DNA of 64,000 nucleotides, taken from positions 483,919-547,918 of the forward strand of contig CAWAIB010000005.1 of NCBI GenBank assembly GCA_963782025.1, read 5' to 3'. Position numbers and translations under genes: made by a program. Positions 15,970 through 59,928 of the stretch are shown piece after piece (position 1 is the stretch's first letter; each line of letters opens with the position of its first letter). The stretch comes from an uncultured Solirubrobacterales bacterium. Lineage in GTDB: Bacteria; Actinomycetota; Thermoleophilia; Solirubrobacterales; Solirubrobacteraceae. The notes under the pieces were generated by a model, which was not told the origin of the DNA, ran no database searches, and saw nothing but the letters and a program-made list of their open reading frames with translations.

Positions 15970-15978
15970 CTCAGGACA

Positions 15979-16126: not shown

Positions 16127-16140
16127 CCCCGCTGCCTCGA

Positions 16141-24403: not shown

Positions 24404-24689
24404 CGAAGGAAACCTACTACATGAGGATTGCGCTACAGGGGCCACATCGTCGAACCACGCGGCAGGCGGTGCAGGAGTCGAGATCGCCCTCGAACTGTAC
24501 TTCTCGATGTGTGGTGCTGGATATAGGCCCACTTGCGCTCGGTGAGCTCGACCTTGCGCCCTTGCGGTGAGAGAGTGTTCGAGTGTTCGCGATGACATGG
24601 GTGTCGTCAGTCCGACGTGCGGGTGGAGGACCAGGCATCGAACATATGGCCCATAGTCCCCGGACGGAATTCGGAACGATTCGTGTGGC

Positions 24690-25030
24690 TCAACCAAGGC
24701 AAGCAATCCCGGGTCTTTCGTCTCCCGGCCAATAGGTCCGCGAAGCGGTATTGGCCGGGAGACGAAAGACCCGGGATCTGCGACGGGGACAAGACCCGGG
24801 ATCTGCGACGGGGACAAGACCCGGGATCTGCGACGGGGACAAGACCCGGGATCTGCGACGGGGACAAGACCCGGGATCTGCGACGGGGACAAGACCCGGG
24901 ATCTGCGACGGGGACAAGACCCGGGATCTGCGACGGGGAGGAAGGTCCGGGATCTGCGACGGCAGCGAAGCCGGTATTGGACGGGGACGAAAGACCCGGG
25001 ATCTGCGAAGGGGACGAAGCCGGTATTTTG
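24690..25030. repeat. type-1 hairpin element with the largest arm-reiteration array (six perfect 25-bp units plus variants)
   Basis: L-arm 24708-24734, apex GGTCCGCGAAGCGG, R-arm 24749-24775 (perfect 27-bp stem). Units CGACGGGGACAAGACCCGGGATCTG start at 24781, 24806, 24831, 24856, 24881 and 24906. Degenerate units run to 25030. Confidence 0.95.
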
Positions 25031-28511: not shown

Positions 28512-29482
28512 ATGGCTACGCAAGGGGTGCTTGGGGCGGCGACGTTGAAGGAGTTCGAGGACGGGTTGCACGGAGAGCTGATCCGGCCCGGCGATGGCGT
28601 TTATGACGAGGCTCGTGCGATCTGGAACGGCGCCCATGACGCTCGCCCGGCGGTGATCGCCCGCTGCGCTGATTCCTCCGACGTGCGCCACGCGATCGGT
28701 TTCGCGCGCAGCGAGGGACTTGACGTCGCGGTGCGTGGCGGCAGCCACAGCATCCGGGCGACCGCGCCGAGGAGATCATGCGCTTCTACCGGGAGTTCAC
28801 GCGTGAGGTGCCGGATGAGCTGAGCACCCTGGTCAACCTGATCACCGGGCCACCCGCTCCGTTCATTCCTGAGGACTGGCACGGCAAGAAGCTGATCGCC
28901 CTCGTCGGCTGCTACTCCGGTGACCCCGAGGAGGGGATGAAGGTGATGCAGCCGCTCCGCGACCTGGGCGACGCGGTCGCGGACCTTGTCAGCCCGATGC
29001 CCTACGTGCAGATGGAGAGCCTGCTCGATGCGCTCTGGCCGAAGGGCACCCAGGCCTACATGAAGGCGGGCTACTTCCGCGAGCTCGACGATCACGCGAT
29101 CGAGACGATGGCCCGCTTCCATCAGAACGCGACCTCCCCGGCCTCGGAGATCCACATCCAGCAGTTCGGCGGCGCGATCGCCCGTGTCGGTGAGGAGGAG
29201 ACCGCCTGCGGGGAACGCCAGGCGCCGTTCGTGCTCAACGCGATCGCCGCCACCCATGAGCCGACCGGCCTGGAGACCCATATGGATTGGGCGCAGCGGC
29301 TCTATGCCGAGATCGAGCCGTCGCTGACCGGTGGCGCCTACATCAACTTCCTCTCCTCCGAGGGCGAGGATCGGGTCAAGGCGGCCTACGGGACCGAGAA
29401 GTTCGCCCGGTTGCGGGCGCTCAAGGACCGCTACGACCCCACCAACCTGTTCCACCTGAACCAGAACATCCCACCATCATGA
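28512..29482 (+). pseudogene. BBE-type FAD-binding oxidase with 427-nt internal deletion (copy of 51088..52485)
   Basis: Nearly identical to 51088..52485 at both ends. The junction near 28751-28757 (CACAGCAT/CCGGGCGACC) removes the equivalent of about 51330-51756 and shifts the frame. The track shows two ORFs, 28512..28823 and 28778..29482. Confidence 0.9.
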
Positions 29483-29547: not shown

Positions 29548-29937
29548 TCACCGTTTTGCCGCGAGGTCGGCATAATGGCCCCACGGCAATGTTGCAGCAG
29601 GCTGCTGCAACATTGCCTCAGATGTCTCGCACATGCTCCATGCGCGCGCGAACTCGCGCATGTATCGAAGGTTACGTAGCGAGAAGCCGGTGATATCGGG
29701 CAGCTCGCGCCGAAGATCAACCGCCAGCCTGTCTACAATCTTGGCGCCCCATCCCTCACGCCGCTCGCGTTCGAGGATCTCGTGCCCGATTTCCCAGTAG
29801 AGCTGGATCAGCTCGCTGTTGACCGCGAGCACGGCACGAGTCCGGGCAGCCCCGATCCGGGCCTTGATCTCGGCCAGGAACTGCGGGTAGGCGGCCGGCA
29901 GCTCGTCGGCGCGACTTGTGGGTGGCACACTGGGCAT
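29548..29937 (-). pseudogene. truncated yhcG/DUF1016-family gene (N-terminal domain only)
   Basis: MPSVPPTSRADELPAAYPQFLAEIKARIGAARTRAVLAVNSELIQLYWEIGHEILERE...GFSLRNLRYMREFARAW...LQQPAATLPWGH, then unrelated sequence and a stop. The PD-(D/E)XK C-domain is absent. The ATG abuts the SOS box. Confidence 0.75.
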
Positions 29938-29951
29938 CGAACATATGTTCC
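29938..29951. promoter_or_regulatory. LexA/SOS-box-like operator (CGAACATATGTTCC)
   Basis: 13/14 match to the palindrome CGAACATATGTTCG. Lies directly 5' of the yhcG-like ATG on the minus strand. Confidence 0.6.
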
Positions 29952-29984
29952 CATCGTCTGCGGACGGCATCCGGAGCTACTCGT

Positions 29985-30133
29985 CTGAGCTCAACCCAGG
30001 CAAGCAGTCCCGGGTCTTTCGTCTCCCGGCCAATAGGTCCGCGAAGCGGTATTGGCCAGGAGACGAAAGGCCCGGGATCTGCGATCGCGGCGAGCCCGGT
30101 ATTGGACGGGGGACGAAGGCCCGGGATCTGCGC
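29985..30133. repeat. type-1 hairpin element plus one partial apex+R-arm copy
   Basis: L-arm 30009-30035, R-arm 30050-30076 (two imperfect positions), second copy GCGAGCCCGGTATTGGACGGGGGACGAAGGCCCGGGATCTGCG 30089-30133. Confidence 0.9.
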
Positions 30134-30283
30134 TGGGCTGTTGTGAAGCTCAGTAACGGCGAGTATGAGGTCCACAACATCGGCGTCAACTGGCCACACC
30201 ACATCTTCGTCAACCAGGACTTCGAGGTGCTCGGCGCCGAGTAGGCGATTCCACAGCAACCAGCGACACATTTGCCCCAGTGA

Positions 30284-31300
30284 TTAGGTACCCACCCGCC
30301 CGGCCACAGAAACTTGGGGGGTGTGCGGGCCTGCGGTCATGCCGCCGCCACCTCGCGGAGCGCCGCGCCGCCGAGTGCCGGGCCGCGGATGCCGGCCACG
30401 GAATGCCGGGCCACGGAATGCCGGGCCACGCACCCCAGCCCCGTTGAGCACCTGGAGGACGTCTTCCGCGCATGCGACGGGGTGCGCCCCGTCCTGCAGC
30501 AGCCGGAGTATGCGGTCTCCGCCCGGGTCGGTGAGGCGGCTGGGCACAACCGCGATATCGCGCCCGAGCTCGGTGGCGATCTTCGTGGTGAGCGCCGCGT
30601 TGGTGAAGCCGCCCGCCTCGACGATCACGATCATGTCGGCAAGCGCGGCGATGATCCGCCGCGAGGCGGTGAAGCACCAGCGCTGGTGTTCGAAGAACCC
30701 GGGCGGGAACTCGGAGATCGCCGTGCCGTGGGCGAGGATCCGCTGGTGCAAAGGATCCTGCCGGGTGAGATGGGAGAGATCGGGCGAGCAGGCCATCACC
30801 GCGATCGTGGCACCGCCACCGGCCAGCGCCCCCTCGTGCGCGATCCCGTCGGGCCCCTCGTTGACGCTGCTTACAACAGTCACACCCGCGCGCGCGAGGT
30901 CCCGCGTGAGCGTCAACGTGATCTCCTCGGCGTACGGGGTCAGCCCGCGGCTGCCAACGATCGCGACCCTGGGATTGGCTGGGGAAAGCAGCTCGCGCAG
31001 ACGCTCAACACCGCAGGTCGCGTACAGCACGGCCGGCGCGTTGGGGAGCTGCCGCAGCGCCCGGGGATAGGCGGCGTCGTGCTGGCACAGCGCGGTCGGG
31101 ACGCTGTCGGTCGGAGCGGGCAGCTCCAGCCCGCGCGGGACCCCGGAAGGATCCTCGACCCCGGCAGCACGCAGCAGCCCCTCGTTCGGGAGGGCCAGCA
31201 CCGACAGCAGCCACTGCTCGCGCAACGGCGAGCGCCGAGCGAGCGCCGGAGCAGCCGCAGCCACAACCGCGGAACGTCGTAAGCAAAGAGAGCAAACCAT
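30284..31300 (-). CDS. dprA: DNA-processing protein DprA/Smf family
   Basis: Rossmann-type core RVAIVGSRGLTPYAEEITLTLTRDLARAGVTVVSS, GGATIAVMACSPD, ISEFPPG, RIIAALADMIVIVEAG. The usual GLARGID string is diverged (VNEGPDGIAH). In-frame 15-nt tandem duplication at 30391-30430 (RGPAF x2). Confidence 0.8.
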   Translation of the reverse strand: MVCSLCLRRSAVVAAAAPALARRSPLREQWLLSVLALPNEGLLRAAGVEDPSGVPRGLELPAPTDSVPTALCQHDAAYPRALRQLPNAPAVLYATCGVERLRELLSPANPRVAIVGSRGLTPYAEEITLTLTRDLARAGVTVVSSVNEGPDGIAHEGALAGGGATIAVMACSPDLSHLTRQDPLHQRILAHGTAISEFPPGFFEHQRWCFTASRRIIAALADMIVIVEAGGFTNAALTTKIATELGRDIAVVPSRLTDPGGDRILRLLQDGAHPVACAEDVLQVLNGAGVRGPAFRGPAFRGRHPRPGTRRRGAPRGGGGMTAGPHTPQVSVAGRVGT

Positions 31301-31454
31301 CGCGCCCAGAACGGTACGCGCGAGTTGTGACGGCAGAGTGGATTAGGTGCCCGCCCACCCCGCGAGACTGTCGCGAGAAGTCCAGCTTGCGGATCTAATT
31401 ACCAGTAACGACTCGTGTGTCCGTGTCTGCCAACACGCCTTGGGACTTCTTTCG

Positions 31455-31625
31455 AGCTCAACCCAGGCAAGCAATCCCGGGTCTTTCGTCTCTCGGCCAA
31501 TAAGGCCGCGAAGCGGTATTGGCCGAGAGACGAAAGACCCGGGATTGCGTAGCCGGGGAGGGAAGACCCGGGATTGCGTAGCCGGGGAGGGAAGACCCGG
31601 GATTGCGTAGCCGGGGGACGAAGAG
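31455..31625. repeat. type-1 hairpin element with 29-bp-period arm reiteration
   Basis: L-arm 31476-31502, R-arm 31517-31543 (perfect, T:A variant). Units ATTGCGTAGCCGGGGAGGGAAGACCCGGG at 31544 and 31573, partial unit from 31602. Abuts the stop codon (31630) of the surface-protein gene. Confidence 0.92.
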
Positions 31626-31629
31626 CGTC

Positions 31630-34112
31630 TCAGTACTTCACGTGCGCTTCGGCTTCGGTGTAGGAGGTGCCTTCTTCGACCTTGAGCTTCAGGATGGCTT
31701 CGCTCGTGCCGGACGCGGGGCTCGTGTATTCGAAGACGCCTGAGGATTCGGCGAGGCCGGAGGCGGGGATCGCGAGGCCGGTAGCGTTCGTGAGCGTGCC
31801 TTCGCCGCTCGTCTTTTCGACCTTCGCCTTGTGGGCGCCGCCGAGGTTGGAGACGATGTTGCCGTATGCGTCGGTGACGCTGGCGTGGGCTTTGAATTTC
31901 TTGCTGGCGCCGATGCTGGTCGTGATGCAGGCAAAGGGGCAGGTGCCTGCTTCGAGTTTGCCGGCGCTCACCGTGGCGCCTGACCAGGCAAAGCGTTCCG
32001 GCGCGCCAGCCCTGATCGTGAACGAGCCCGACGTGCCTGTCACGGTGGCTGCCTTCTTTGACTTTGAGGGTCGTGTTCTGGGCGTCAAAGAGCTTGATCA
32101 GAGAGGCTGTGCCCACGCCTTCGGTGAAGGTGACCGTCGTGGCCGTGGTCGGGTATTCGGGCGCGAGGCCGCCGGGCGAGCTGGCGGGTTCGCTGAAGGC
32201 GAGTGTCCTTGAGCCCGCATAGCCGGCCGTGATGTTGCCCCATTCGTCGGTGGCGGTGAGCGTGATGTTGAAGGGGGCGCCCGCTTCCTGTTCTGAGGGT
32301 GTTGGCACGGTGAGCTTTTTGGTCGCGGCTGCTTTGACCGTGAAGGAGCCCGTGACGCCTTCGATCGTCCCTTCCGTCGCCTTCAGTGTCGTGTTTTGGG
32401 CGTCGTAGAGTTTGATCGTCGAGGCCGTGCCCACGCCGGAGGCGAAGGTGACGGTCGCCGGGTAGCTGGGCGGTTGTCCGCTGGGCGAGTTTGAGGGTCC
32501 GCTCCAGGTGAGCGTCTTTGCGCCCGTGTAGCTCTTGGCGGTGTTGCCCCATTCGTCGATCGCGGTGGCTTTCACGCTGACGGCGGTGGTGCCCGCTGTC
32601 GCTTCGGCCGGCGTCGTCATGCTGAAGCTGTTGGCGGCGGCCGCCTTGACGGTGAACGAGCCCGAGGCGCCTTCGATGCTGCCTTCTTTCGCTTTGAGCG
32701 TGGTGCTCGCGGCGTCGTAGAGCTTGAGCGAGGAGGCCGTGCCCACGCCCGCGGTGAAGGTGACCGTCGTCGCCGAGGCAGGGTATTCGGGCGCTGTGCT
32801 GATGGGCGAGGGCGAGCTCGCCGGCCCGCTCCAGGCGAGCGTCTTTGCGCCGGCGTAGCTGGTCGCGGTGTTGGAGTATTCGTCGAGGGCGGTGAGCGTC
32901 ACGTTGAAGGGGGCGCCCGCTTCCTGTTCGGACGGCGTTGGCACAGTGAATTTCTTGGCGACGGCCGGTTTGACGGTGAAGCTGCCCGACGTTCCTTCAA
33001 TTGCTGTCGTGCTTTCCTTTGCTTTCAGCGTCGTGGTCTGGGCGTCGTACAGCTTGGTCGAGGCAGCCGCGCCGGCGCCGGCGGTGAAGGTGACCGATGC
33101 CGTGTAGCTGGGCGCTTTTCCACTGGGCGAGTTGGCGGGTTCGCTCCAGGTGATCGTCTTTTTGCCCGCATAGCTCGTGGCGGTGTTGCCGTATTCGTCG
33201 GTGGCGGTGAGCGTCACGTTGAAGGGGGCGCCCGCTTCCTGTTCTGAGGGTGTCGGCACGCTGAGCTTCTTCGCCGCGGCCGCTTTGACCGTCACCGCCA
33301 GTCCGGTGGAGTTGTTGAGCGAGCCTTCCTTGACCTTGATGTGCGCGGCTTCGGCCTTGTACAGGGTCATCACGCCGTTGATCGCGCTCGACACCGTGGA
33401 TTTGCCTTCGCTGAACGTGATTTCGGTTGCTTCGCCAAAGCTCCTTTCGACGCCTGAATTGTCAACCACAAGCGGTTCTTCGCCGGCCGCTTCGTTGGCG
33501 CCTTCAAAGATCAGGGAATGCGAACCCGAGTAGGTCCCGACCGTGTCGCCCGACGCGTCCTTGGCGGTGATTGTGAGGTTGTCGGTCGCGCCGGCGGTGG
33601 GCGTGGTGTTTGCGGCTTCGAGCACGAGGTGGGTCGCCGGGCCATAGGCAACCGTCACCGATTTGGCTGTGCTTGTCGCCGTCCAAGTGCGCCAGACCGC
33701 GGTGACCGTGTATTCGTGGGCGCCGATCGACAAGCCCGTGTCGGTGCAGCTCGTGGCGGTCGAGGGAGAGCCCGAGCTCGGGCAGCCGCCGCCGGGGGAG
33801 CCGGCGTCGCGAGTCAGCGAAGTATTCGACCGTGCCGCCGCCGGGTGGCGTGACGGCCGACCAGGTGAGTTCGACCGTTTGGGCGCCCGGCGTGGCACTC
33901 GAGATCGCGGGCGAGGAGAGCGTCGCCAGGCTCGCCGACGCGTTTATTGTGCCGGCGCCCGACCAGTAACCAAAGACGCCCGCGACCAGCAGGCTCAGCG
34001 TCATCACGGTAGTGACCGCGATCCGCCGGGGCCTGCTGTGGCGGTTCGATCGCCTGGGCCTGCTGCGACGATTCGGTCTTCTCATGAGTGCGCGCTTGGT
34101 ATCGCGGGCCAC
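31630..34112 (-). pseudogene. large cell-surface protein with about six tandem Ig-like (Big_1-type) repeats, interrupted by two +1 frame disruptions
   Basis: Three track ORFs join into one protein: 33504..34112 (signal anchor IAVTTVMTLSLLVAGVFGYWSGAG, TVEYF), 31343..33898 (LTRDAGSPGGGCPSS..., then ~100-aa repeats VPTPSEQEAGAPFNVTLTATDEYGNTATSYAG...KLYDAQTTTLKAKE) and 31630..32088 (ATVTGTSGSFTIRAG...EAEAHVKY*). Frame breaks near 33815-33825 and 32047-32056. Confidence 0.75.
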
Positions 34113-34650: not shown

Positions 34651-34730
34651 CTATCGGACGGGGTGTAGCGGGCTTTAGCGCTGGGCGCCGCCTGGCAATA
34701 CGGAACCAGAGTCGCGGCCGACCGTCGCTC

Positions 34731-34774
34731 GGGAGACGAAAGACCCGGGATCTGCGCCGGGGACGAAAGACCCG
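34731..34774. repeat. partial type-1 element (two R-arm copies, no L-arm)
   Basis: GGGAGACGAAAGACCCGGGATCTGCGCCGGGGACGAAAGACCCG. Lies between the 34135..34650 start and the 34777 stop. Confidence 0.8.
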
Positions 34775-34776
34775 TC

Positions 34777-35361
34777 TCAGCGAAAGGTGAGTGTGTCTGC
34801 GCCGAGGGCTTGGGCTACGAGCGCGAGGTCGTGTTTGTCGTGGAGGTGGCGGGCGTGCTCGCGTAGGTCGAGGGCGGCGTTCATCGCGGCGACGAGGTCC
34901 GCGGCGTGGGCGTCCACCTCGACCTTGGCTCTTTCGTGCTCGGTGAGCCAGTGAGCGACATCTGGCCAGTGCCATAGGCGGGTCTTGTGGTCTGCGTATG
35001 TGACGGGGGCTGGGAAGCCTCCGGGACCGCGTTCGTTGGTGGAGAGCAGCCGTATGTACTCGCGTGAGAGTCCGCTGCGCTTGGCGATGGCGGCCATTGT
35101 GACGAGCTCGTCGGGCTCGATGCGAACGACCTGCAGGCCCGGTACGGCGGAGGTGACATCTCGGATGGCGCTGGCCAGCGCCTCGCTGAAGCTGTCCGCC
35201 TCGCGATCGAACGCTCCGTACTGCGCACCGTCTCGCACCCCGAACAGTGCGTCGTCGCAGCCGGCCTCGTACAACGCATCGAACTGCTCGTCGTCCAGCA
35301 CATCGACACCGCTGAAGAAGATAGTGAAGCTGTGGATCGTTGGTTTAGTGGTCGAGCTCAT
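34777..35361 (-). CDS. HTH DNA-binding protein (antitoxin-like)
   Basis: Probable start MSSTTKPTIHSFTIFF at 35361. HTH-like PDELVTMAAIAKRSGLSREYIRLLSTNERGPGGFPAPV...RLWHWPDVAHWL. ATGA start/stop overlap with the upstream small ORF. Confidence 0.6.
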   Translation of the reverse strand: MSSTTKPTIHSFTIFFSGVDVLDDEQFDALYEAGCDDALFGVRDGAQYGAFDREADSFSEALASAIRDVTSAVPGLQVVRIEPDELVTMAAIAKRSGLSREYIRLLSTNERGPGGFPAPVTYADHKTRLWHWPDVAHWLTEHERAKVEVDAHAADLVAAMNAALDLREHARHLHDKHDLALVAQALGADTLTFR

Positions 35362-35618
35362 TTGCTTTTCTGCTGTTTCACGGTGTTTGGTGTGCCCGGG
35401 TTGTGATCGCATTTCTTGATGGCCTCACGGATGCGCTTTGCGATGTCGCCCGGCCGTCGCGGTGTGCCCGCAAGCGCGACTGCGCAGCCACTGCCACAGG
35501 AGAGTGTCCCCCAGCGGTGGCCCGCCCCTTTGGATCTGTCTGTTTTCCAGCCGGCACGTTCAGCGTCCTTGATCGCCTTGCGAATGTCCTTGTCTGGGTG
35601 AAGGTCTTTGTTAGCCAT
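35358..35618 (-). CDS. small Cys-containing hypothetical protein, translationally coupled to 34777..35361
   Basis: 86 aa from ATG 35618: MANKDLHPDKDIRKAIKDAERAGWKTDRSKGAGHRWGTLSCGSGCAVALAGTPRRPGDIAKRIREAIKKC... The track ORF (to 35756) is extended through the yhcG-fragment module. Confidence 0.55.
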   Translation of the reverse strand: MANKDLHPDKDIRKAIKDAERAGWKTDRSKGAGHRWGTLSCGSGCAVALAGTPRRPGDIAKRIREAIKKCDHNPGTPNTVKQQKSK

Positions 35619-35668
35619 AAGTGTAGCAACTAGTTGGAGGTTGTCAACACATGCGGGAGTGGGTCTGC

Positions 35669-36095
35669 CCGGGCCTTGATCTCGGCCAGGAACTGCGGGT
35701 AGTCGGCGGACAGCGCGTCGCTCCGGCGTAAGGGTGCAGAACAAGTAATCGAACATATGTTTGTATATGGCCAGGACGGAACGAGGCTACTCCAGGCGTC
35801 TGGCCCGTCTTCACGGCCGCTGATCCGGGCCCAACCAAGGCAAGCAGAGTCCGGGTCTTTCGTCTCCCGGCCAATAAGTCCGCGAAGCGGTATTGGCCGG
35901 GAGACGAAAGACCCGGATCTGCGCCGGGGGGAGCTGTGAAAATCTCTTTGTGAATTTAAGGATGTGTTTTTGGGCCAGCATTCGCGCAGGAAGGTGAAAC
36001 CTCCAATGGAAGTGGGCGCGGAGCGTCCTGCTCCGCGTACAGGGGTTGCTTAGCCACGGTAGATGTGTGGCTTTAGCCCTGGCTGGCTTGTACAA
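35669..36095. repeat. composite module L1: yhcG 5' fragment, SOS-like box, conserved 85-nt spacer, type-1 hairpin, D module
   Basis: 35669-35748 encodes (minus strand) ...SDALSADYPQFLAEIKAR with ATT in place of ATG. Hairpin arms 35850-35876 and 35891-35917. D module 35931-36095 with hairpin CGCGGAGC-GTCCT-GCTCCGCG at 36017-36037. Confidence 0.85.
35750..35763. promoter_or_regulatory. SOS-box-like site with one mismatch (CGAACATATGTTTG)
   Basis: 13/14 match to CGAACATATGTTCG, in the same module position as the perfect copies. Confidence 0.45.
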
Positions 36096-36103
36096 ACGCG
36101 CTG

Positions 36104-37525
36104 TCAGCCGTTGATGGTCCAGGCGAGCAGGCCGGCGGGAACGGCCCATATGTCTTCCCTCAGGTCGAGGATGTCGCGGGTGGCGATGATCCCTCGCTGG
36201 TAGTGCTCGTCCAGGGCTTTGCGCTCTTGCATCCATTTCTGGCTGACGTACTTGGACTCGATGGGAGTCTCTATGAGAGGACCGACGAAGTCGATCTCGC
36301 CGCCGGTGTTCGGGTTGCGCTGCACGAGGATCGCGGCCTCATCGAGGATCGCGAGGGGGTCGGCGCGGGCGAGGGCGCGCAGTAGACACATGCCGAGCTG
36401 TTGCTCGGACAGGTAGGTGACATCAGGGGACGCAACCGAGCGATCGCGCAGGAAGGGCAGGCGGGCGATCAGCGGGTCGGTGAAGTAGAGCTTGCTCTGC
36501 CCTCCTGCAACGGCCGTCACTCCATCGTGGGTGATGGAGGCCCGCCACGCGTAGAAGGAGGCGCAAAGCCTGTCGATACGGTCATCGACTGTGTTGCGAG
36601 TGCCGATGTTCAGCGATGTGGCGATGTTGGCGACGCTGAGCGGTGAGCCCATTCCAGCCACGAGGCGCTGAAGAAGTGCCTTCACGTCCCGGTCGCTCAT
36701 CGAGCCGATATGGAGGACGTCACCGACGAGGATGTTCCAGAGGCCGTTGGCTGTCGTGGCTTGCACGTCGACTCCCTCGAGGGCATCCGCGACCGCGCGG
36801 GGGAAACCGCCGATCGTCAGGTAACGCTCCCAGGCGAGAACGAGCTGGTCGACTTGGACCGCGAGTGGCTCCAGATAACGTCGAGCCCCATCGGATTGCA
36901 GGTCGAGCAACGCCACTGCATCCCCTGGGAGGTTGGCGGACAGGTTGGGATAGAGCTCTCCTACGAACGCACGAAACTGCATTGGGAGGAGCAGGCGAAC
37001 TCCGCCGGCGTCGCCCTCGCGGCCTCCGAGCTCCCCCTGAGCTTCGCGCAGCTTGGCTCCGGAGGACCCCGTCGCAACGACGCATCCACTGCGTAGGGAG
37101 GTTTGATCGCGTAGCTGCTTGAGGGCTGCGGCCCAGCCGCTGATGTAGGTGATCTCGTCGAAGAACCAGTAGCGGTGCTCAGGCGCGATCCCGGGTGTCA
37201 GATCCTCGGCGAGCTTGACGATGCGTCGCAGATCCTGGGGGCTCAGATCCTCACACGGACAGAACACGATCCGCCGCGGATCGACGCCCTCGTCGAGCAG
37301 GCCGGCGATTGCGCGCTTCATCGCAACGCTCTTGCCGGCCCGACGAGGGCCCATGAGGAGATAGAGCGAGCCGAGCGCGATGTCGCTCAACGGATGAGGG
37401 TCGTAGGAGCTGAGCGCGTTCAGTCGCGCCTCCCGCAGATCAGGATCCCGCTCCCGCCACCGCTTGGGGTCCTGCCACCACGGGTTGAAATCAAGCAAGT
37501 GCTGGCGGCGCTCGAAGTCCCTCAT
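36104..37525 (-). CDS. AAA ATPase with C-terminal DUF4143 nuclease-like domain (COG1373 type)
   Basis: 473-aa ORF. Walker A LLMGPRRAGKSVA, Walker B WFFDEITY, C-terminal GGEIDFVGPLIETPIESKY (D...E.K nuclease-like). TACAAT (37540..37535, minus strand) lies 9 nt upstream of the ATG. Confidence 0.85.
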   Translation of the reverse strand: MRDFERRQHLLDFNPWWQDPKRWRERDPDLREARLNALSSYDPHPLSDIALGSLYLLMGPRRAGKSVAMKRAIAGLLDEGVDPRRIVFCPCEDLSPQDLRRIVKLAEDLTPGIAPEHRYWFFDEITYISGWAAALKQLRDQTSLRSGCVVATGSSGAKLREAQGELGGREGDAGGVRLLLPMQFRAFVGELYPNLSANLPGDAVALLDLQSDGARRYLEPLAVQVDQLVLAWERYLTIGGFPRAVADALEGVDVQATTANGLWNILVGDVLHIGSMSDRDVKALLQRLVAGMGSPLSVANIATSLNIGTRNTVDDRIDRLCASFYAWRASITHDGVTAVAGGQSKLYFTDPLIARLPFLRDRSVASPDVTYLSEQQLGMCLLRALARADPLAILDEAAILVQRNPNTGGEIDFVGPLIETPIESKYVSQKWMQERKALDEHYQRGIIATRDILDLREDIWAVPAGLLAWTING

Positions 37526-37748
37526 CTAAGCCATATTGTAGCCCAAAAACACAGAAAGCCTCATCAAAACCAACCCATATTCAGGTAGATCACTCATCAA
37601 AACCAGGGGTAAATCACGGGTAACGCTCAACAGAACCAGGCATGTCGCCTCATGCTCGCCCGCGGCAAGCAGCGCAAATAGCCCCGGGACACCCTCATCA
37701 GTTTGCCGTTTGGGGTTGTTGTTGAGAAGCCATAGACCAGGAGGTGTA

Positions 37749-38165
37749 CTGAGCGGGGTTTTTTGGGTCGCATCCGTGCAGAACAAGTAATCGAACATAT
37801 GTTCGCATATGGCCAGGACGGAACGAGGCTAGTCCAGGCGTCTGGCCCGTCTTCACGGCCGCTGATCCGGGCCCAACCAAGGCAAGCAGAGTCCGGGTCT
37901 TTCGTCTCTCGGCCAATAGGTCCGCGAAGCGGTATTGGCCGAGACGAAGACCCGGATCGAAGACCCGGGATCTGCGCCGGGGGATGAAAGACCCGGGATC
38001 TGCGACGGGGAGGGAAGACCCGGGATCTGCGACGGCGGGAGCTGCGAAAATCTCTTTGTAAATGGAGGATGTGTTTTTGGAGGATGTGTTTTTGGGCCAG
38101 CATTCGCGCAGGAAGGTGAAACCTCCAAAGGAAGTGGGCGCGGAGCCTCCTGCTCCGCGTCAAGG
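37749..38165. repeat. composite module L2: short yhcG start remnant, perfect SOS box, spacer, type-1 hairpin with three R-arm ends, D module
   Basis: Hairpin L-arm 37892-37918, R-arm 37933-37956 (with small deletions). R-arm ends finish at 37976, 38004 and 38031. D module 38037-38165 has an internal duplication GGAGGATGTGTTTTT x2. Confidence 0.85.
37792..37805. promoter_or_regulatory. perfect LexA/SOS-box palindrome CGAACATATGTTCG
   Basis: Exact 14-bp palindrome flanked by T on the left (TCGAAC). Matches the Gram-positive/actinobacterial LexA operator consensus CGAAC-N4-GTTCG. Confidence 0.65.
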
Positions 38166-38198
38166 GCGCATTACGCTCGCCGGTCTATGAGGCTGGCC

Positions 38199-38423
38199 CT
38201 ACCCCGCTGTTATGGGACGCAGCGAGTCCTCGGGGAAGGGGATGTCTTCCTCTTGGAGGGTCTCACCCGAAGGGCCGTGAATCGGGACTCGCACCTTGAC
38301 GTATCGCCGTGCCGGGGTGCCGTAGACCTCGAGCACCTCGCCGACGATCTCATCCAGACCCCACGGCACCGCAACCTTGTCTCCGATCTTGATGTGCTTG
38401 TTCATCGTCGCCATCGTTATCAC
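38199..38423 (-). CDS. small hypothetical protein
   Basis: 74-aa ORF (KIGDKVAVPWGLDEIVGEVLEVYGTPARRYVKVRVPIHG). Its GTG start overlaps the stop of the upstream reading frame (GTGA). Confidence 0.5.
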   Translation of the reverse strand: MITMATMNKHIKIGDKVAVPWGLDEIVGEVLEVYGTPARRYVKVRVPIHGPSGETLQEEDIPFPEDSLRPITAG

Positions 38424-38696
38424 CAGGGTCGTTGCCGTTGGAACAGCTGGCCGAGCTGGGTCGCTGTCTCTGCATCCAGGTTAGCGGCCAAGCCATCGAG
38501 GTCTCGCCGCCAGCGTCGAAAGGTGCCCAGTACGAGCGGAAAGCCTTCCGCACGTAGTTTTGACCAACTTGGCTTCATCCGCATGCGCAATGCCATTGCG
38601 GGCATCGTTGAGCAATGTCAGCGTGAGGTTATGTCTTGGAGTATGTGGATCTCGTTTGTCTAGCGCCGGCCATACGTCGAAGCCGAACCTTCCAAA
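38420..38696 (-). pseudogene. HEPN-like (Rx4H motif) gene remnant, frame-disrupted at an A4 run
   Basis: VVTFGRFGFDVWPALDKRDPHTPRHNLTLTLLNDARNGIAHADEAKLVK continues in the +1 frame as LRAEGFPLVLGTFRRWRRDLDGLAANLDAETATQLGQLFQRQRPW*. The break is at TTTT 38558-38561 (plus strand). Confidence 0.4.
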
Positions 38697-38701
38697 AGTC
38701 A

Positions 38702-38803
38702 CTACGCGCCCTTGAGCACCCAGCGGTCGGGTGCCACGACGAGCAGGCGGCGCAGGAACAACTCGAACGCCACACGCTTGCGAAGGCGGGTGTAGGCCGA
38801 CAC
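38702..38803 (-). pseudogene. AbiEii/AbiGii-toxin N-terminal fragment ending in tandem stops
   Basis: VSAYTRLRKRVAFELFLRRLLVVAPDRWVLKGA** is the characteristic pre-catalytic segment of DUF1814 nucleotidyltransferase toxins. TAG-TGA at 38704..38699. Confidence 0.55.
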
Positions 38804-38922
38804 GTTCGCTGGGGATGGTGGCGACGTGGTGGGTGAGGATGTGGGGGGTTGACGACCGAACGACCAAAGGGGTGTCTGTGGTAGTTCCGCTGCGCCGGCA
38901 AGGCGAGGAAATGACGCTCAGT

Positions 38923-39363
38923 TCAGGGGCGAGCAGCGTTCAGGGTCGGGATGTCGGTGCTGGACGATATGTATTGCGCGATCGGAGGGTCAAGCCGCTC
39001 GGTAACCCACAGTACGTCTTGGAGTGCCGCCGTGAGGTTTGTACTCAGGAGCGGCTCGTGGTGTGCAACGCGGTTGCGCAGCTCGTGCAGGCGACCGACC
39101 CGGGCGTCCAGGTCGCTGCGATTGGTCTTGGCTCCGAACGCGGCATGGAGATAGGGCACCCACAGGCTCTTCTCGTGTGCCTTGGAGGAGAGGTATCGCC
39201 AGAAGCCGAACGTCAGGTTGGCGACTACCTTGCCGGATGGGGCAGCTGGCCCGCCGGCGGCGGCGACGGCCCGATCTACGATTTCTCGTGGCTGGCGATT
39301 GATGTCTATGGGTCGGGCCGCTCTGCCGGGCGTGCGCTTGCTGCGGTAGAGCGGCGGAAACAC
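38923..39363 (-). pseudogene. Abi_2 (AbiD/AbiF-like, HEPN) C-terminal fragment
   Basis: ANLTFGFWRYLSSKAHEKSLWVPYLHAAFG...RVGRLHELRNRVAHHEPLL (Rx4H). The N-terminal half expected for this family is not found in any frame upstream. Confidence 0.55.
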
Positions 39364-39871
39364 CGTTTCCGGGGCGAGCGTCCAGTGTGTTTGCCCGGCA
39401 GGGGTCGCGGCTGGTTGAGTGTATACTTCACGTTGGAAAGCCCCGGTGGACCGCTGACCTCGGTCATGTCGCCGGGGCTAAGTCGTTCCGGGCCGCTCTC
39501 AACACGCTTGTGCGGACTTCGCGCCCATCGATCTGAAGCCCTGAGCCGCTTCGGTGCCCTCGCTAACGCCTTCGCAGTTCATCGGCGCCGAAGTGCAGCG
39601 TCAGAACTTACACCGCATCCATGTAATCGCCTGACGTCCGCGGAGAGTTCTGTGCTAACGGCTCCGCAGGATTCAGCGAACGTAGTTGTGAGCGTCACCG
39701 GGCGGGGATGTCATACAGGTCGTCATACATCTGAGAGCTTATAGCGGCGGAAGGCCTGAAGCGAGACGGATGTCTCGCGGTCTCCAGAAGCCAACAAACT
39801 TCCACCGAGGGGCCTCCATCCTCACCCACCACGTCGTCAACCCAAACGCAGATGCTCATCCAATGTGGCGT

Positions 39872-39967
39872 TCAACAGCGGGCAACACCGAGGCCGGTGC
39901 TGGCGGCTTCGTTCTTCAGGCGCTCCTCGAGCGCTTGGCGGAACGCGGCGGCGCTCGTGTACTTCAT
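39872..39967 (-). pseudogene. first 31 codons of an AbiEii-type toxin, ATGA-coupled to the AbiEi gene, then stop
   Basis: MKYTSAAAFRQALEERLKNEAASTGLGVARC*. The start ATG (39967..39965) overlaps the AbiEi stop TGA (39966..39964). Confidence 0.6.
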
Positions 39968-40560
39968 CGGTGCGTCTCGCTGGTGAGGAGGGCTTGGATC
40001 GTGTGCTGTTGACGGCGGCGGGCGGCTTCTTCTTGGAGTTGCTTGCGCGTGAGCAGTCCTCGGCGCAGGGCCTGTCTGACCGCCATCGAGAGCTGCTCGG
40101 GCTGGAGGCGGTCCGCGACATCGAGGAGCGTTCGTGGCGGGGCGGTGAGGGGCAGGCCGTCACGCCAGACGGTCGCGACCTCTTCACCGTCAGGGCGGGT
40201 GTGGAGGGTGACGCCCGCAGGCCGGCGCAGCCCGCGGTGCCGGCGCGGGACGAGCAGGTGCATCCCGTCGGGGATGTTGTCGCTGAGGTCCAGCAGCGCG
40301 AGGGCGCTCTCGTGGGAGAGCAGTGCATCGCTGGCACCCACGGCCATCCACGCCTCGCGCAGGTCGTCGTGTTCGGCGGTTGGGAATCCTCGGATGCGGT
40401 ACAGACCGCGGCGGATACGCGCGAAGCGCCCGCGGCGCACGTGGTGATCCAGGAGTTGGCGGCTGACTCGATGCGCACGGGCCTGGCTGGCAGTGAAGTA
40501 GCCGCCCTGTTGATAAGCCTCGGCCTCGAGCTCCCGCATGCCAGGGTATACGTCATTCAT
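39964..40560 (-). CDS. type IV toxin-antitoxin AbiEi-family antitoxin (AbiEi_4-like)
   Basis: MNDVYPGMRELEAEAYQQGGYFTASQARAHRVSRQLLDHHVRRGRFARIRRGLYRI...ALLSHESALALLDLSDNIPDGMHLLVP...GLPLTAPPRTLLDV. The track ORF starts 16 codons earlier, inside module L3. Confidence 0.85.
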   Translation of the reverse strand: MNDVYPGMRELEAEAYQQGGYFTASQARAHRVSRQLLDHHVRRGRFARIRRGLYRIRGFPTAEHDDLREAWMAVGASDALLSHESALALLDLSDNIPDGMHLLVPRRHRGLRRPAGVTLHTRPDGEEVATVWRDGLPLTAPPRTLLDVADRLQPEQLSMAVRQALRRGLLTRKQLQEEAARRRQQHTIQALLTSETHR

Positions 40561-40589
40561 AAGACAAGTATAGCTTGACTTTCGCGGAC

Positions 40590-41025
40590 CACGAGAGTCA
40601 TCGAACATATGTTCGCATATGGCCAGGACGGAACGAGGCTAGTCCAGGCGTCTGGCCCGTCTTCACGGCCCGCTGATCCGAGCTCAACCAAGGCAAGCAG
40701 AGTCCGGGCCTTTCGTCTCTCGGCCAATAAGTCCGCGAAGCGGTATTGGCCGAGAGACGAAAGACCCGGGATCTGCGACGGGAGGAAGCCCCGGGATCTG
40801 CGCCGAGGCGGCGCTCGCCTATGGCGTGCGAGTGGTGTGTCTGTGTGCCGGAAGAGCCTGTGCAGGAAATCGGCTACGGGGGGTGTGTTTTGGCAGTTAT
40901 GAAGGCCGTCTTGATGAGCGTCAAAACCATGCCGACCCCACGCCTGAGGGCGCGCGGGAGGTGTGTCTCCAAGACCAGGTGGTCGTGGTGATGGCCTGTG
41001 CCGGTACGCAAGGCGGACAACGCGA
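40590..41025. repeat. composite module L3: SOS box, spacer, type-1 hairpin, E module, partial F module, type-2 spacer remnant
   Basis: Hairpin arms 40703-40729 and 40744-40770, extra R-arm end to 40802. E module 40803-40866, F module 40867-40950. GTGGTGATGGCCTGTGCCGGTACGCAAGGCGG at 40985-41016 matches the 64-bp type-2 spacer. Confidence 0.85.
40602..40615. promoter_or_regulatory. perfect LexA/SOS-box palindrome CGAACATATGTTCG
   Basis: Exact copy of the 37792-37805 site. On the minus strand it is followed by ATG (40601..40599), then unrelated sequence and the AbiEi gene. Confidence 0.65.
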
Positions 41026-42162
41026 TTATGCCCACAGGGCGCCGATTGGCAGAGCCCAGAGACGGTCTCCCAGGGGGATTGTCTGCTCTCGGGGATGGAT
41101 CACGATGCCTGCTGTAAAACGGGAGCCGCGACGTTCGCGGAGCTTGATCAGCCACTTGTAGTCCTGGCTCCTGATCGTCGCGCGCGCCTTGATCTCGATC
41201 GCGACGATCTGGCCGTCGGCGCGCTCCAGGATCAGGTCCACGTCTTCGCGGTCGCGCTGGTAGTGGTAGAGGCGGGCCCGGTTGGTGGAGGAGCCGAGGT
41301 GCTTGAGGATCTCCATCGCGACGAAGTTCTCGAGGATCTTGCCGGTGAGCTGATCGTCGCGTGCGATTCGCGTCTCGTCGGCGCCCAGTAGCGCCGCGAG
41401 CAGGCCCGAGTCGGCGAGATAGACCTTTGGCGTGCTCGCCTCTCGTGCCCCGAGCCCAGGCCGCCATGCGTTGAGCCTTCTCACGAGGAACAGCTGCTCC
41501 AGGAGTCCCACATAGGCCTTCACCGTTTCGGGGCTGAGGCGCAGACGCACGGCCGCGTTGCGGTAGGAGAGGAGGTTGGCCGCCTGGGTTGCGAGCAGGC
41601 GCAACAGCCTCGGCATCTCCTCGATCTTGATCGCATCGGAGATGTCGCGCAGGTCGAGCTCGAGCGTGCTATCGACGTAGCTTTCGAACCAGCGTTCGCG
41701 TCGGGGTCCACTGCGCACGAGGGCTTCGGGATAGCCTCCCGCGGCGACGATCGGCACAAAGGCGTCCCGCCCCACGGTGCAGCCGTCCAGCCATGGAGGA
41801 GCGCCCGCGAACAGAGCATCCACGAGGTTTGTCTGGCCGCCTCGAATCTCGCTCTGGGACAGTGGCCAGAGGTTCAATGTCTCGATGCGCCCGGTGAGCG
41901 CGTCCTTGACCCTCGTCGAGGTCAGGATGTTGGCGGAGCCCGTCAGCAGAAACCGGCCGGGGGTCGTGTCCCTGTCGACGGCGCGCTTGATCTCCAGCAG
42001 CAGCTCCGGCACGTGCTGGACCTCATCGATCAGGACAGGCCCGGAAAGCTCCGCAATAAAGCCCCCGGGATCGCGAAACGCCGCGTCGCGAGTCGCCGCC
42101 TCGTCGATGCAGCTCGCGCAGGATGCGGACGATTCCCTGCGCCGGCGACGATGAGACCGCAA
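41026..42162 (-). CDS. DUF4143-type ATPase-nuclease paralog lacking a recognisable in-frame P-loop (possibly degraded)
   Basis: PVLIDEVQHVPELL (Walker B region), RFLLTGSANI, C-terminal DVDLILERADGQIVAIEIKA. No Walker A upstream of the TTG start in this frame. Neighbouring frames 42163-42420 show only weak remnants. Confidence 0.65.
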   Translation of the reverse strand: MRSHRRRRRESSASCASCIDEAATRDAAFRDPGGFIAELSGPVLIDEVQHVPELLLEIKRAVDRDTTPGRFLLTGSANILTSTRVKDALTGRIETLNLWPLSQSEIRGGQTNLVDALFAGAPPWLDGCTVGRDAFVPIVAAGGYPEALVRSGPRRERWFESYVDSTLELDLRDISDAIKIEEMPRLLRLLATQAANLLSYRNAAVRLRLSPETVKAYVGLLEQLFLVRRLNAWRPGLGAREASTPKVYLADSGLLAALLGADETRIARDDQLTGKILENFVAMEILKHLGSSTNRARLYHYQRDREDVDLILERADGQIVAIEIKARATIRSQDYKWLIKLRERRGSRFTAGIVIHPREQTIPLGDRLWALPIGALWA

Positions 42163-42699
42163 TCACCGCGGTCGGCGAGCTGCGACGGCTGCTGACCGAC
42201 GCAGGATAAACGCGATACGCCGCTGTGAAGAACCACTGCCGGCCCGTTGCCGGTCGCGCTCACGACCGCTTTTGTGCAAGAGCGAGCACGCCAAGAAACC
42301 GCTCCAGGACAGCTGAGTTGGACGAGGAGCAGGGGAATCGAGCAACTCAAACGCGGAGAGTCGCTCCTCTGCGCTGCTCCCAAGAAGATGCAGCACCACG
42401 ATTCCTACCTCTTGCATGCTTCTTGCCTTTCGCGTTCGTGTTCACAATGCCGGCCGAGCGTTGTGCGATTCGCAGGGTCTTGGTCTCGCGTTGTCGTGGG
42501 TCGAGGGGCCCGACCGATCGGAGATCGGCCAGCGGGAGCGGATGGCCTACTCGGGGGCGAGTCGGGGGGGAGGTGATCTCCAGGATTGCCGGCGACGCCG
42601 CCGACGCAGGGATCTCGTCCTGAGTGCAAGCGAGCTGTGCGTCTGCGCAGACGCTTGCCCAATTCTCCTGCTCCTCGGTGACGGCTAGGAGCCCGGTCC

Positions 42700-58089: not shown

Positions 58090-58208
58090 ACGGCTTTGTA
58101 CGCATTGTGTGCAAAGGCCCTTAAGAGACTTCCGCGAAACGAGCTGCGAAAGGCTTTAACTGCTTATGCATCACTGGCCCTGCGACATGGGGCGGCAGCC
58201 CCTCAAGC

Positions 58209-59768: not shown

Positions 59769-59928
59769 CGCCGCTAGAAACGACACGCCGGCCGGCTCCT
59801 TCCGCAGTCGCTGAGCGGGGTTTTTTGACCGATCAAAGATCGGCTCGCATCCGCGCATGTGCCTGGTGTTCCCGTTGTGGATGGGTGCAGGCTCTCCATG
59901 CCCCGGTACCAGGGCTTGCTTAGCCACG

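Follow-up and report, generated by a model that had tools for sequence, protein, structure and literature searches.

Hairpin-forming repeats with LexA-box promoters and yhcG remnants between defence genes of an uncultured Solirubrobacterales bacterium

Introduction

How has a row of unrelated defence genes come to be separated by copies of one and the same composite repeat? The question is raised by 64 kb of DNA (the window, G+C content 67%) from an uncultured soil actinobacterium of the order Solirubrobacterales, in which minus-strand genes between 34.7 and 42.2 kb alternate with three modules, L1, L2 and L3 (Table 1). Each module consists, in this order, of one to three arm repeats (25-29 nt), a long hairpin, a spacer of ~80 nt, a LexA box and the start of a DUF1016/yhcG gene. 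A preliminary description had read the region as a cassette-like array, in which cargo was gathered by variable-length capture as in rolling-circle elements (IS91/ISCR/Helitron type) or by repeated illegitimate recombination. We have found that the modules combine three layers of repeats which are independent of one another, occur throughout the lineage and happen to be stacked in this place, and that the region is a fixed, partly decayed anti-phage defence island. The arrangement of modules and defence genes is real and undescribed, and the repeat is an actinobacterial variant of the interspersed palindromic repeats of the REP/BIME/REPIN type (repetitive extragenic palindromes, the mosaic elements built from them and their hairpin-forming pairs). 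With moderate confidence, we consider that this REP/REPIN-like family has been spread and homogenised by recombination anchored at the hairpin and has been trimmed by deletion.

In its proteins and DNA, the window matches long-read soil metagenome contigs and metagenome-assembled genomes labelled Solirubrobacterales or Solirubrobacteraceae, among them five close strains (98-99.5% identity), L002 and L009 (same contig), L003, L007 and L008. The main hairpin family of the window, W, has been aligned from 12 copies, nine of the window and three of the more distant locus L013; a related hairpin family, X, has been defined in locus L092 and contributes one window element.

Three layers of the composite module

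L1, L2 and L3 are copies of one composite repeat, all on the minus strand, with identities of 95.7% over 186 nt plus 84.6% over 156 nt (L1/L2), 93.2% over 191 nt (L1/L3) and 89.1% over 229 nt (L2/L3). The preliminary description had recognised these three modules correctly, and its view that in each of them a structure resembling a terminator precedes a promoter-proximal SOS region has held; the composition that it had given, from a sequence called D/E/F to the yhcG start, applies in that order to L1 and L2, whereas the upstream block of L3 belongs to another class (type B, below).

The first layer is an oriented palindrome made of 1-10 tandem copies of the left half-arm, the hairpin with arms of ~31-36 nt, and a 20-nt tail. 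The hairpin tip CCGC...GCGG is invariant, and CCGCTTCGCGG has been found in 14 of 16 copies. Arms, hairpin and the 20-nt tail AYTGCTTGCCTKGGTTGRGC are all that the 12 W copies have in common, and similarity splits into classes beyond them. Folded as single-stranded DNA, the L1 hairpin (loop ~12 nt) reaches -46.2 kcal/mol (z = -12.4), and a search with up to two mismatches finds 28 occurrences of the arm motif GACGAAAGACCCGG in the window, where 1.0 would be expected. Paired double changes preserve the palindrome both within W (CCCGG/CCGGG vs CTCGG/CCGAG) and between W and X (C-G vs U-A).

The second layer is a LexA-box promoter with the first codons of yhcG, a gene that encodes a DUF1016 protein with a PD-(D/E)XK nuclease domain, and the third is D/E/F, an element of ~100 nt that stands 3' of the stop codons of co-oriented genes. 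A profile search has located four D/E/F copies in the window, seven in L004, five in L013, three in L006, two in L092 and one each in L010 and L014, every one on the strand of the neighbouring genes and usually shortly after a stop codon. Only an 8-bp hairpin is supported within it, with one covarying pair (G-C/A-U 10:8); a reading of D/E/F as a structured RNA has been rejected, as no consensus fold exists outside this hairpin. All three layers recur in other Solirubrobacterales, where they are combined differently and the stems have diverged.

The array had been described at 34.7-42.2 kb, but the hairpin elements of the window number ten and span 46 kb, nine of family W (16.1-62.4 kb) and one of family X. 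All lie on the minus strand (one orientation in nine copies has a chance of ~0.004), all ten are intergenic, and together with all D/E/F copies they are co-oriented with the neighbouring genes. Among these neighbours are a cytochrome P450 gene, a GFA-family gene, dprA (upstream of the element at 30.0 kb) and a repeat-protein gene. The preliminary description had set its array apart from ordinary lineage-wide intergenic repeats; in part the modules have turned out to be just that, since the repeats are lineage-wide and also flank the P450, GFA-family and dprA genes, which are not defence genes.

Nested tracts and mosaic flanks

Beyond the common core, the sequence on the yhcG side of the hairpin (right flank) and that on the arm side (left flank) vary separately. 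The right flank consists of spacer, LexA box and yhcG start in two versions, type II at L1, L2, L3 and 62298, partly at 58275, and twice in L013, and type I at 30010 and 24709; it is replaced by unrelated sequence at 31477 and at L013 10811, and by a mid-yhcG fragment at 16162. The left flank is D/E/F at L1, L2, 58275 and in L013, type B at L3, 62298 and 60.2 kb (96-99% identity between L3 and 62.3 kb), type C at 16162 and L013 2690, and a truncated yhcG gene at L013 6540. Read on the plus strand, type B looks like the promoter and 5' end of a gene for a putative secreted protein.

On both sides these tracts have been observed to be nested. To the right they extend from nothing (31477) through part of the spacer (58275) to the SOS box with 2, 6, 27 and 33 yhcG codons (L3, L2, L1 and 62298), and the type-B tract of L3 is shorter at both of its ends than that of 62298. 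The flanks are moreover mosaic: L1, L2, L3 and 62298 between them show each of the four possible pairings of left-flank type with spacer variant (GGAGTAG or GGACTAG), the same is true of spacer variant and start codon, and the type-B flank precedes a W hairpin twice and an X hairpin once.

LexA boxes and yhcG remnants

The SOS box is exact (CGAACATATGTTCG) in L2 and L3 and has one mismatch in L1 and in the elements at 29548-30140 and 62116-62560 (box positions in Table 1). The underlying LexA palindrome CGAAC-N4-GTTCG occurs 11 times in the window with at most one mismatch, against 4.1 expected, and a LexA box is predicted at the same position over the yhcG ATG in L004, L006, L010, L013 and L092. 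The yhcG remnants that follow the boxes are all of different length, ~2 codons in L3, ~6 in L2, ~27 in L1, ~33 at 62.3 kb and ~130 at 29548. The junction between yhcG and cargo thus differs at every locus, as noted before, and we concur that these differing junctions argue against a fixed att/attC site.

The window holds no intact open reading frame (ORF) with both DUF1016_N and YhcG_C (the PD-(D/E)XK domain); only DUF1016_N persists, in the 130 codons of ORF 29548-29970 (Pfam, 5.4e-29). Compared by blastn with the intact yhcG of L010, the copy at 30010 matches nt 1-392 and then 952-985, which corresponds to an internal deletion that has spared a short C-terminal piece. At 16162 only codons ~100-150 remain (15950-16130). 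In L2, yhcG codon 6 passes into the 3' half of a D/E/F, a join that an internal deletion of a [yhcG-D/E/F] unit would leave; D/E/F follows the yhcG gene in both L010 and L004. The L010 gene (382 aa) is intact and has a LexA box, L004 has a near-intact copy with one nonsense codon, and the intact genes of L017 and L023 have no evident LexA box. In a collection of 5.8 billion proteins, all 120 listed relatives of the yhcG fragment (of 125 at E <= 1e-5) are shorter than 250 aa, and these listed proteins have scattered truncation points and out-of-frame junk tails. As longer genes have visibly decayed at 30010, 16162 and L2, at least some of the short remnants are products of erosion and not short captures; the idea that the remnants as a whole were captured at their present length has failed on at least these three copies.

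One further remnant, at 24658-24510, shares 85.9% identity over 149 nt with a LexA box and the start of a 115-aa ORF in L092, which precedes a DUF2283 gene. This match means that the first ~10 codons of yhcG have been fused in frame to another gene in two lineages, and the fusion is old. The start codon of yhcG in L3 begins an ORF of 14 codons (40557-40601) whose TGA overlaps the ATG of the AbiEi gene (ATGA), an arrangement typical of translational coupling. In several lineages yhcG switches after PWGH to ...YAD(L/V/I)G... at the same point (window ~29590-29610; L014 1457-1476; P0015 and P0047), which corresponds to a 20-nt palindrome, TTATGCCGA-NN-TCGGCATAA. A site-specific insertion may have left its footprint here; the palindrome does not recur elsewhere in the window or in the other loci.

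Differences among close strains

Over 19.7-47.5 kb, all five strains align collinearly with the window, with identities of 96.6-99.5%, except for a repetitive gene for an 851-aa protein, which has 94.8% identity in L007, and no gain, loss or reordering of genes has been found among them in this interval. Collinearity breaks within repeats, in the arms at 24.8 kb and 31.5 kb, the element at 34.7 kb, the L1 arm/hairpin and the L2 arms, with a further break inside the L3 hairpin in L008 only. The breaks outside repeats are a 339-nt deletion in the PDC-S01 gene and a difference in a gene with a BBE domain. At least five of the seven breaks fall in arms or hairpins, and since the strains differ there, the repeats are the unstable points of the region.

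At 34.7 kb, where the preliminary description had reported a partial element, the element is real: L002, L003, L007 and L009 have a further arm, a full hairpin and ~95 nt in place of an unrelated 29-nt stretch in the window, and L008 likewise has no loop motif. The difference is a replacement and not a clean empty site. The ten tandem 25-nt arms at 24766-25015 vary in copy number among the strains, in the manner of a variable-number tandem repeat. Directly next to the yhcG remnant, the BBE/FAD oxidoreductase ORF 28778-29482 (234 aa) is a shortened paralogue of the complete gene at 51088-52485; in L002, a full-length gene of 465 aa occupies the position of the short one (10456-11853).

Modules in other lineages

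Per length of relatives' DNA, six hairpins per 20 kb have been counted in relatives, three in 12 kb of L013 and four in 9 kb of L092. L013 presents a DUF4143 ATPase gene, D/E/F with hairpin, SOS box and 30 yhcG codons, and a two-gene pair of which the second encodes a helix-turn-helix protein; then D/E/F, an Abi-like gene with a 74-aa gene, and D/E/F again; and finally an SOS box and 170 yhcG codons that pass without a gap into an arm, a hairpin, an SOS box and the ATG of another gene. Some of its cargo families are those of the window, in a different order and with the same kinds of module between them. This difference in order across species supports the preliminary description, whereas the syntenic and invariant organisation of the five strains speaks against it. 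The Abi-like and 74-aa cargo is clearly homologous to L013 4795-5290 (roughly 85-90% by eye); as this homology stops at the stop codon and the distance from there to D/E/F differs (about 45 vs 230 nt), cargo and repeat have not travelled as a unit.

L092-L101, from peat metagenomes, have a hairpin with 35-nt arms of different sequence that retains the outer GCAGATCYCGG and the tip CCGCTTCGCGG, accompanied by tandem copies of the left arm only (62-nt period). In L092, this hairpin comes with the 3' end of the upstream gene in four copies of a 264-nt segment. Two L092 units that share the layout [hairpin-Fic-small gene-D/E/F-gene fragment-hairpin] have 93-100% identity beside the hairpins and mostly 63-85% within Fic, except for ~90% over its first 120 nt. 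L096 and L092 differ in the genes called downstream of a DUF2283 pair.

In L004, toxin-antitoxin and defence genes are densely arrayed on one strand together with D/E/F, an AT-rich repeat and truncated ParA-like copies, and no W hairpin has been found there. Over its 20 kb (1-20471), ~11 copies of the AT-rich ~45-nt motif GCTACCATAGTTATACCCAGTTTTTAAAACAATGTATGAGGGG and 4-5 truncated 5' copies of the ParA-like gene accompany the seven D/E/F, and it also has a different palindrome family with 37-nt arms (11766-11894, 16122-16152 and 17492-17529). In L012, a tyrosine recombinase gene (5216-5875; Phage_integrase, 7e-25) directly precedes a truncated yhcG in the same orientation, and a SocA/Panacea antitoxin gene and an IS3-type transposase gene lie downstream.

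An empty-site comparison for the element at 24.7 kb has had to be rejected: the P450 orthologues in L090 and L091 (88-92% identity) have other neighbours and no modules, and these loci share with the window only ~70 nt upstream of the P450 ATG, which leaves no clean empty site. In L091 (146-5517), the P450 orthologue (92% aa) lies between genes that share domain architectures with two window genes located 12-22 kb from the window P450 (window 569-2788, 14620-15969 and 22952-24400 compared). Gene order across the region is consequently highly fluid between species.

Scans of GTDB species genomes and of JGI metagenomes with the hairpin loop pattern, of JGI metagenomes with the conserved spacer pattern and of viral contigs with a relaxed loop pattern have given no match, and neither has a search of module L1 against plasmids and phages.

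Cargo genes and other features of the window

The alternation of modules with defence-type cargo on the minus strand, as first described, has been borne out by PADLOC, which has identified PDC-S01, AbiEi, a PDC-S01-like ATPase and PDC-M06A/B (Table 1). Of the two DUF4143 ATPases that had been proposed, that at 41026-42162 carries the domain (1.5e-42), although its N-terminus is missing here (the nearest homologues have 411 aa): a 339-nt deletion relative to L009, at 42106-42110, truncates the gene, with ~2 nt of microhomology by our own reading. In the other, at 36104-37525, AAA_14 alone and no DUF4143 domain has been detected, and its weak PADLOC match suggests a distant relative of PDC-S01. 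A promoter-like site, TTGACA-16-TACACT, ends at 35620 ahead of PDC-M06A (promoter scan). Searches of NCBIfam have provided no names for the cargo proteins.

Table 1. Positions of cargo genes and repeat elements in the 64-kb window
Feature	Position	Strand	Description
Hairpin element	16139-16266	-	downstream of GFA-family gene; joined directly to mid-yhcG fragment (15950-16130)
Ten-arm element	24510-25015	-	ten arms (25-nt period), hairpin, half SOS box, decayed fusion ORF
Hairpin with longest yhcG remnant	29548-30140	-	SOS box 29938-29951 (one mismatch); Pfam DUF1016_N; blastn to L010
Hairpin element, three arms	31454-31625	-	begins 5 nt past stop of 851-aa repeat protein; no SOS or yhcG part
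Partial element	34731-34774	-	two arm repeats, beginning 2 nt past PDC-M06B stop codon
PDC-M06A and PDC-M06B, overlapping	35358-35618 and 34777-35412	-	PADLOC 2.4e-13 and 1.3e-31; candidate defence system
Module L1	35669-36095	-	D/E/F 35945-36044; one arm; hairpin 35844-35922; spacer; degenerate SOS box 35750-35763 (one mismatch); yhcG remnant ~27 codons
473-aa AAA_14 ATPase	36104-37525	-	AAA_14 3.9e-18 (Pfam); weak PDC-S01 3.1e-25 (PADLOC); own promoter-like sequence
Module L2	37749-38166	-	D/E/F 38053-38166; three arms 37960-38041; hairpin 37886-37960; spacer; SOS box 37792-37805 (exact); yhcG ~6 codons; 3' part of second D/E/F (GGATGCGACCCAAAAAAC)
Gene debris	38199-39963	-	split AbiEii N-terminal fragment (by eye), 5'-truncated Abi-like fragment, 74-aa ORF (38199-38423)
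AbiEi antitoxin/regulator	39964-40560	-	Pfam AbiEi_4; PADLOC AbiEi 8.7e-59; called as 198 aa in L007-L009
Module L3	40590-41025	-	type-B left flank ~40810-41025; two arms ~40777-40806; hairpin 40697-40776; tail and spacer 40616-40696; SOS box 40602-40615 (exact); yhcG ATG and one codon
PDC-S01-type AAA_14/DUF4143 ATPase	41026-42162	-	DUF4143 1.5e-42, AAA_14 2.6e-15 (Pfam); PDC-S01 2.7e-132 (PADLOC)
Element without SOS box	58200-58490	-	D/E/F, arms, hairpin, truncated spacer
Element with X hairpin	59815-60430	-	D/E/F (60333-60426), third type-B flank copy, X element (59925-60130; 2.5 arms of 64-nt period and hairpin), degenerate D/E/F
Element with type-B flank	62116-62560	-	type-B flank, hairpin, spacer, degenerate SOS box 62197-62210 (one mismatch), yhcG ~33 codons

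The ten-arm element occupies the divergent intergenic region between a BTAD regulator gene and the P450 gene, and the element at 62116-62560 lies upstream of a two-gene unit (61026-62039 and 60506-61033). Within the debris, a ~1-kb segment (38819-39839) interrupts an apparent AbiEii gene, with ~31 AbiEii codons before it and a further stretch after it. Its ends are 23-nt inverted repeats (38819-38841 and 39817-39839, 96% complementary), the 146-aa ORF inside it (38923-39363) is identical in relatives, and the segment looks like a small transposable element that would have inactivated the AbiE system.

Further along, the 851-aa protein (31343-33898) contains about four internal tandem repeats of 315 nt (32048-33289, 72% matches) and belongs to no Pfam family; it has 788, 790 or 886 aa in other strains and is split in L008. 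The gene dprA (DNA_processg_A, 1.6e-39) is bracketed by a direct repeat of ~22 nt, GGGTGGGCGGGCACCTAATCCACT (30279-30300) and GGCGGGTGGGTACCTAATCACT (31337-31360), and a 15-nt tandem repeat (30354-30430) lies in the region of its 3' end. No tRNA genes have been found in the window and no Rfam family has matched it at the gathering score, a permissive Rfam scan having returned only sub-threshold hairpin look-alikes (miRNA precursors, sok).

Discussion

From these observations we infer a mechanism in which the copies would not have been made by capture of cargo and the hairpin would act as a fragile, recombinogenic site. A break at the long palindrome would be repaired from another copy of the hairpin, by ectopic gene conversion or by one-sided homology with an illegitimate join, and in the course of this repair, stretches of varying length from the surroundings of the donor copy would be pulled along into the recipient locus, to the left and to the right of the hairpin, where ordinary deletions would later trim them. 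The expected outcome would be a constant core, nested tracts on each side, mosaic flanks and a different yhcG breakpoint in each copy. The common core, the two-sided nesting, the four combinations of flank and spacer and the identity peak around the hairpins of L092 all speak for the hairpin as the site of exchange. The deletion step has been seen once between strains, in the 339-nt loss with its microhomology of ~2 nt (by our own reading). Compensatory changes would keep the palindrome perfect, as would be the case under intrastrand correction or selection on the fold. The illegitimate recombination that the preliminary description had offered as an alternative to rolling-circle capture is thereby retained as a part of the explanation that we favour.

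Four other explanations have been weighed. The modules may be the decay products of a selfish element, an autonomous unit of arms, hairpin, spacer, LexA box, yhcG and D/E/F whose SOS-induced PD-(D/E)XK nuclease would act on the hairpin, which we regard as rather unlikely; by analogy with REPINs and their tyrosine transposases (RAYTs), such an element would have inserted here many times and its copies would then have eroded from the 3' side and internally, a course of events to which we grant the same limited credence. It would fit that seven of the nine W hairpins of the window abut yhcG-derived sequence, that three copies are demonstrably decayed longer genes, that the 120 listed fragment relatives stay below 250 aa with varied truncation points and junk tails, that an intact LexA-boxed gene (L010) and a near-intact one (L004) exist, and that the conserved tip suggests a protein partner. 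However, the intact or near-intact genes of L010, L004, L006, L017 and L023 have no big hairpin upstream, and hairpins occur without a yhcG part at 31477, at L013 10811, in all four L092 copies and in the X element at 60 kb; neither a target-site duplication nor a defined second end has been found, and no function is known for YhcG. In the same vein, features of miniature inverted-repeat transposable elements have been looked for, and no target-site duplication has been seen at 31477, 16162 or L013 6544; the palindrome could be formed by two abutting terminal repeats. Rolling-circle or one-ended capture, as in IS91, ISCR or Helitron elements, would start replication at the hairpin, run a variable distance into yhcG and insert the product elsewhere; it would account for the hairpin being a constant end while the sequence adjoining it towards yhcG varies in length, and for the single orientation of all ten elements. 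We consider it extremely improbable: no HUH/Rep gene has been found in the window or in any fetched locus, variable tracts occur on the other side of the hairpin too (type B, D/E/F and the 3' end of the L092 upstream gene), and several of the short remnants are deletion products of longer genes. The rolling-circle proposal of the preliminary description is accordingly disfavoured, as the ORFs scanned contain no HUH/Rep, transposase or integrase gene and the extent of the copies varies on both sides of the hairpin.

Gene cassettes of a non-integron kind, in which the hairpin, D/E/F or both would serve as site-specific sites like attC for a recombinase encoded elsewhere, appear decidedly unlikely to us. 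In their favour, same-strand arrays of small toxin-antitoxin and defence genes separated by elements occur in four lineages (window, L013, L004 and L092), L013 has the same cargo families in a different order, a gene difference lies downstream of the DUF2283 pair between L096 and L092, left and right flank classes are shuffled across the hairpin, fold and tip are conserved while stems diverge, as with attC, and a tyrosine recombinase adjoins a yhcG fragment in L012. Against them stand the absence of a recombinase from the window and from the arrays of L004, L013 and L092, the absence (by inspection) of paired RYYYAAC/GTTRRRY core sites, zero gain or loss among the five strains, the end of the window/L013 cargo homology at the stop codon with differing D/E/F distance, the promoter-like sequences that cargo genes have of their own, and the hairpins that flank ordinary genes too. 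In about 85 ORFs scanned across the window, no integrase, transposase or HUH protein has been found, and tblastn of the window with recombinases from related loci, including the L012 integrase, has given no match. Read as attC, the hairpin is followed by GTTGRGC (minus strand) with no complementary RYYYAAC opposite it by inspection, and its stem is a near-perfect palindrome; this reading has been rejected. Lastly, terminators and SOS promoters might have been duplicated along with paralogous genes as ordinary regulatory DNA, which requires no special recombination and agrees with the terminator-like arm units, with their position right after stop codons and with the LexA box conserved at the yhcG start in several species. 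We judge this highly improbable, as the copies are 87-96% identical while the flanking genes are unrelated, ten arms stand in a divergent promoter region that needs no terminator, identity forms a gradient around the L092 hairpins and the flanks are combined as mosaics. In sum, the region is described correctly as a set of cassettes, and between species this picture holds in part, whereas an active capture machine, be it rolling-circle or integron-like, is not supported.

Several points also weigh against hairpin-anchored spread with trimming. Neither a conversion nor a transposition event has been caught among the five strains, the nested tracts could be what remains of larger, ancient duplications after trimming from both ends, and the repeat counts and recombinase searches cover the window and the fetched loci of relatives. 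An invariant tip and a conserved outer stem across diverged families suggest a dedicated recognising protein, which a pure repair model does not need. In L1 and 62298 a GAAC half-site of the SOS box is broken, and L1 and L2 have lost the yhcG start codon (GATTAC for GATGAC), so the SOS part is decaying in some copies; the yhcG start that had been assigned to each module is in every case a remnant, and in these two its ATG is gone.

As to a possible function, every arm unit is scored as a small stem-loop followed by a T-rich tail. At 34.7 kb and 31.6 kb the arms begin 2-5 nt past the stop codon, and in L092 immediately after it. These features make termination or 3' stabilisation plausible, and arms and hairpin probably act as transcription terminators or as stabilisers of mRNA 3' ends between co-directional genes. 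Judging from sequence, some of the genes downstream of intact LexA boxes are probably controlled by the SOS response, which is plausible because such boxes lie directly upstream of AbiEi (in L3) and of a membrane-protein gene (L013 6717).

Literature searches have found no description of such repeats in Thermoleophilia or Solirubrobacterales, and nothing relevant on DUF1016 or YhcG together with LexA or SOS. The closest parallel is offered by the REP/BIME and REPIN-RAYT systems of Enterobacteria and Pseudomonas. REPINs are defined as two inverted REP arms with a short spacer that form a hairpin (PMC3116915, PMC3337134, bioRxiv 10.1101/2022.05.22.493013). Like the window repeats, these are extragenic palindromes with a long hairpin and often extra tandem single arms, located past the stop codons of co-oriented genes, and they form lineage-specific families that diverge with the host and are mosaic with short motifs (BIMEs). 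There are also differences: no gene for a RAYT (Y1 transposase) has been found in the window and the fetched loci, the arms are longer (~31-36 nt), only one half of the palindrome is repeated, as direct copies, in the extra arms, a conserved GTAG/CTAC head is lacking, the copies carry variable neighbouring promoter and gene ends, and the host is an actinobacterium. What is unusual in this repeat is the tandem half-arms and the fragments of promoter and gene ends that are carried through defence islands.

Integrons, including sedentary chromosomal ones and clusters of attC sites without an integrase (CALINs), likewise comprise same-strand toxin-antitoxin and defence arrays separated by structured repeats whose fold and tip are conserved more than their sequence. 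A link to the SOS response is shared as well, integron integrases being controlled by LexA; in the window, the LexA box is instead repeated in the modules and not placed at one integrase promoter. The window further differs in having no intI and no R''/R' core sites, imprecise boundaries, cargo with its own promoters and, compared with attC, a near-perfect palindrome without extrahelical bases. The BOX elements of pneumococci (A-B(n)-C), the NIME/dRS3 repeats of Neisseria and the Correia elements are composite blocks, one of them in variable tandem number; they are concentrated between genes of variable regions and are thought to promote recombination and to affect transcript ends. Their sequences are unrelated to the window modules, and to our knowledge they do not carry the promoter and 5' fragment of a specific gene. 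REP13E12 of Mycobacterium tuberculosis (~1.4 kb) is an actinobacterial multi-copy element with LexA-regulated nuclease-domain genes, whose proteins are of the HNH type; we know of no association of it with a long palindrome or with defence islands. IS91, ISCR and Helitron elements share one conserved end with variable-length adjacent DNA, and differ in their HUH transposase and ori/ter ends, which the window lacks, while its variable tracts lie on both sides.

The conserved tip and the recurrent link to yhcG keep open a reading, to which we assign a low probability, in which a dedicated nuclease recognises the hairpin. Defence islands would then be built without an integrase: the structured palindrome would be recognised by a dedicated protein, possibly the SOS-induced YhcG nuclease, and cleavage of the hairpin would drive the copying or exchange of hairpin and LexA promoter into new intergenic sites. 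We think this quite unlikely; if true, such an integrase-independent system would place newly acquired defence and toxin genes under the SOS response and exchange them among genomes. In any case, the recurrent link offers a lead that can be tested on what DUF1016, a nuclease family of wide distribution, does. Where annotation is concerned, the many short proteins named 'DUF1016 N-terminal domain' in soil metagenomes are mostly such remnants. REP-type repeats have been well studied in Proteobacteria, and the Solirubrobacterales are an abundant, almost uncultured group of soil bacteria. In the present case, such a repeat is observed to bring a LexA-box promoter and the ends of genes to further sites within defence islands. 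By this concrete route, defence and toxin genes could come under SOS control, and islands could be reshuffled without a dedicated recombinase.

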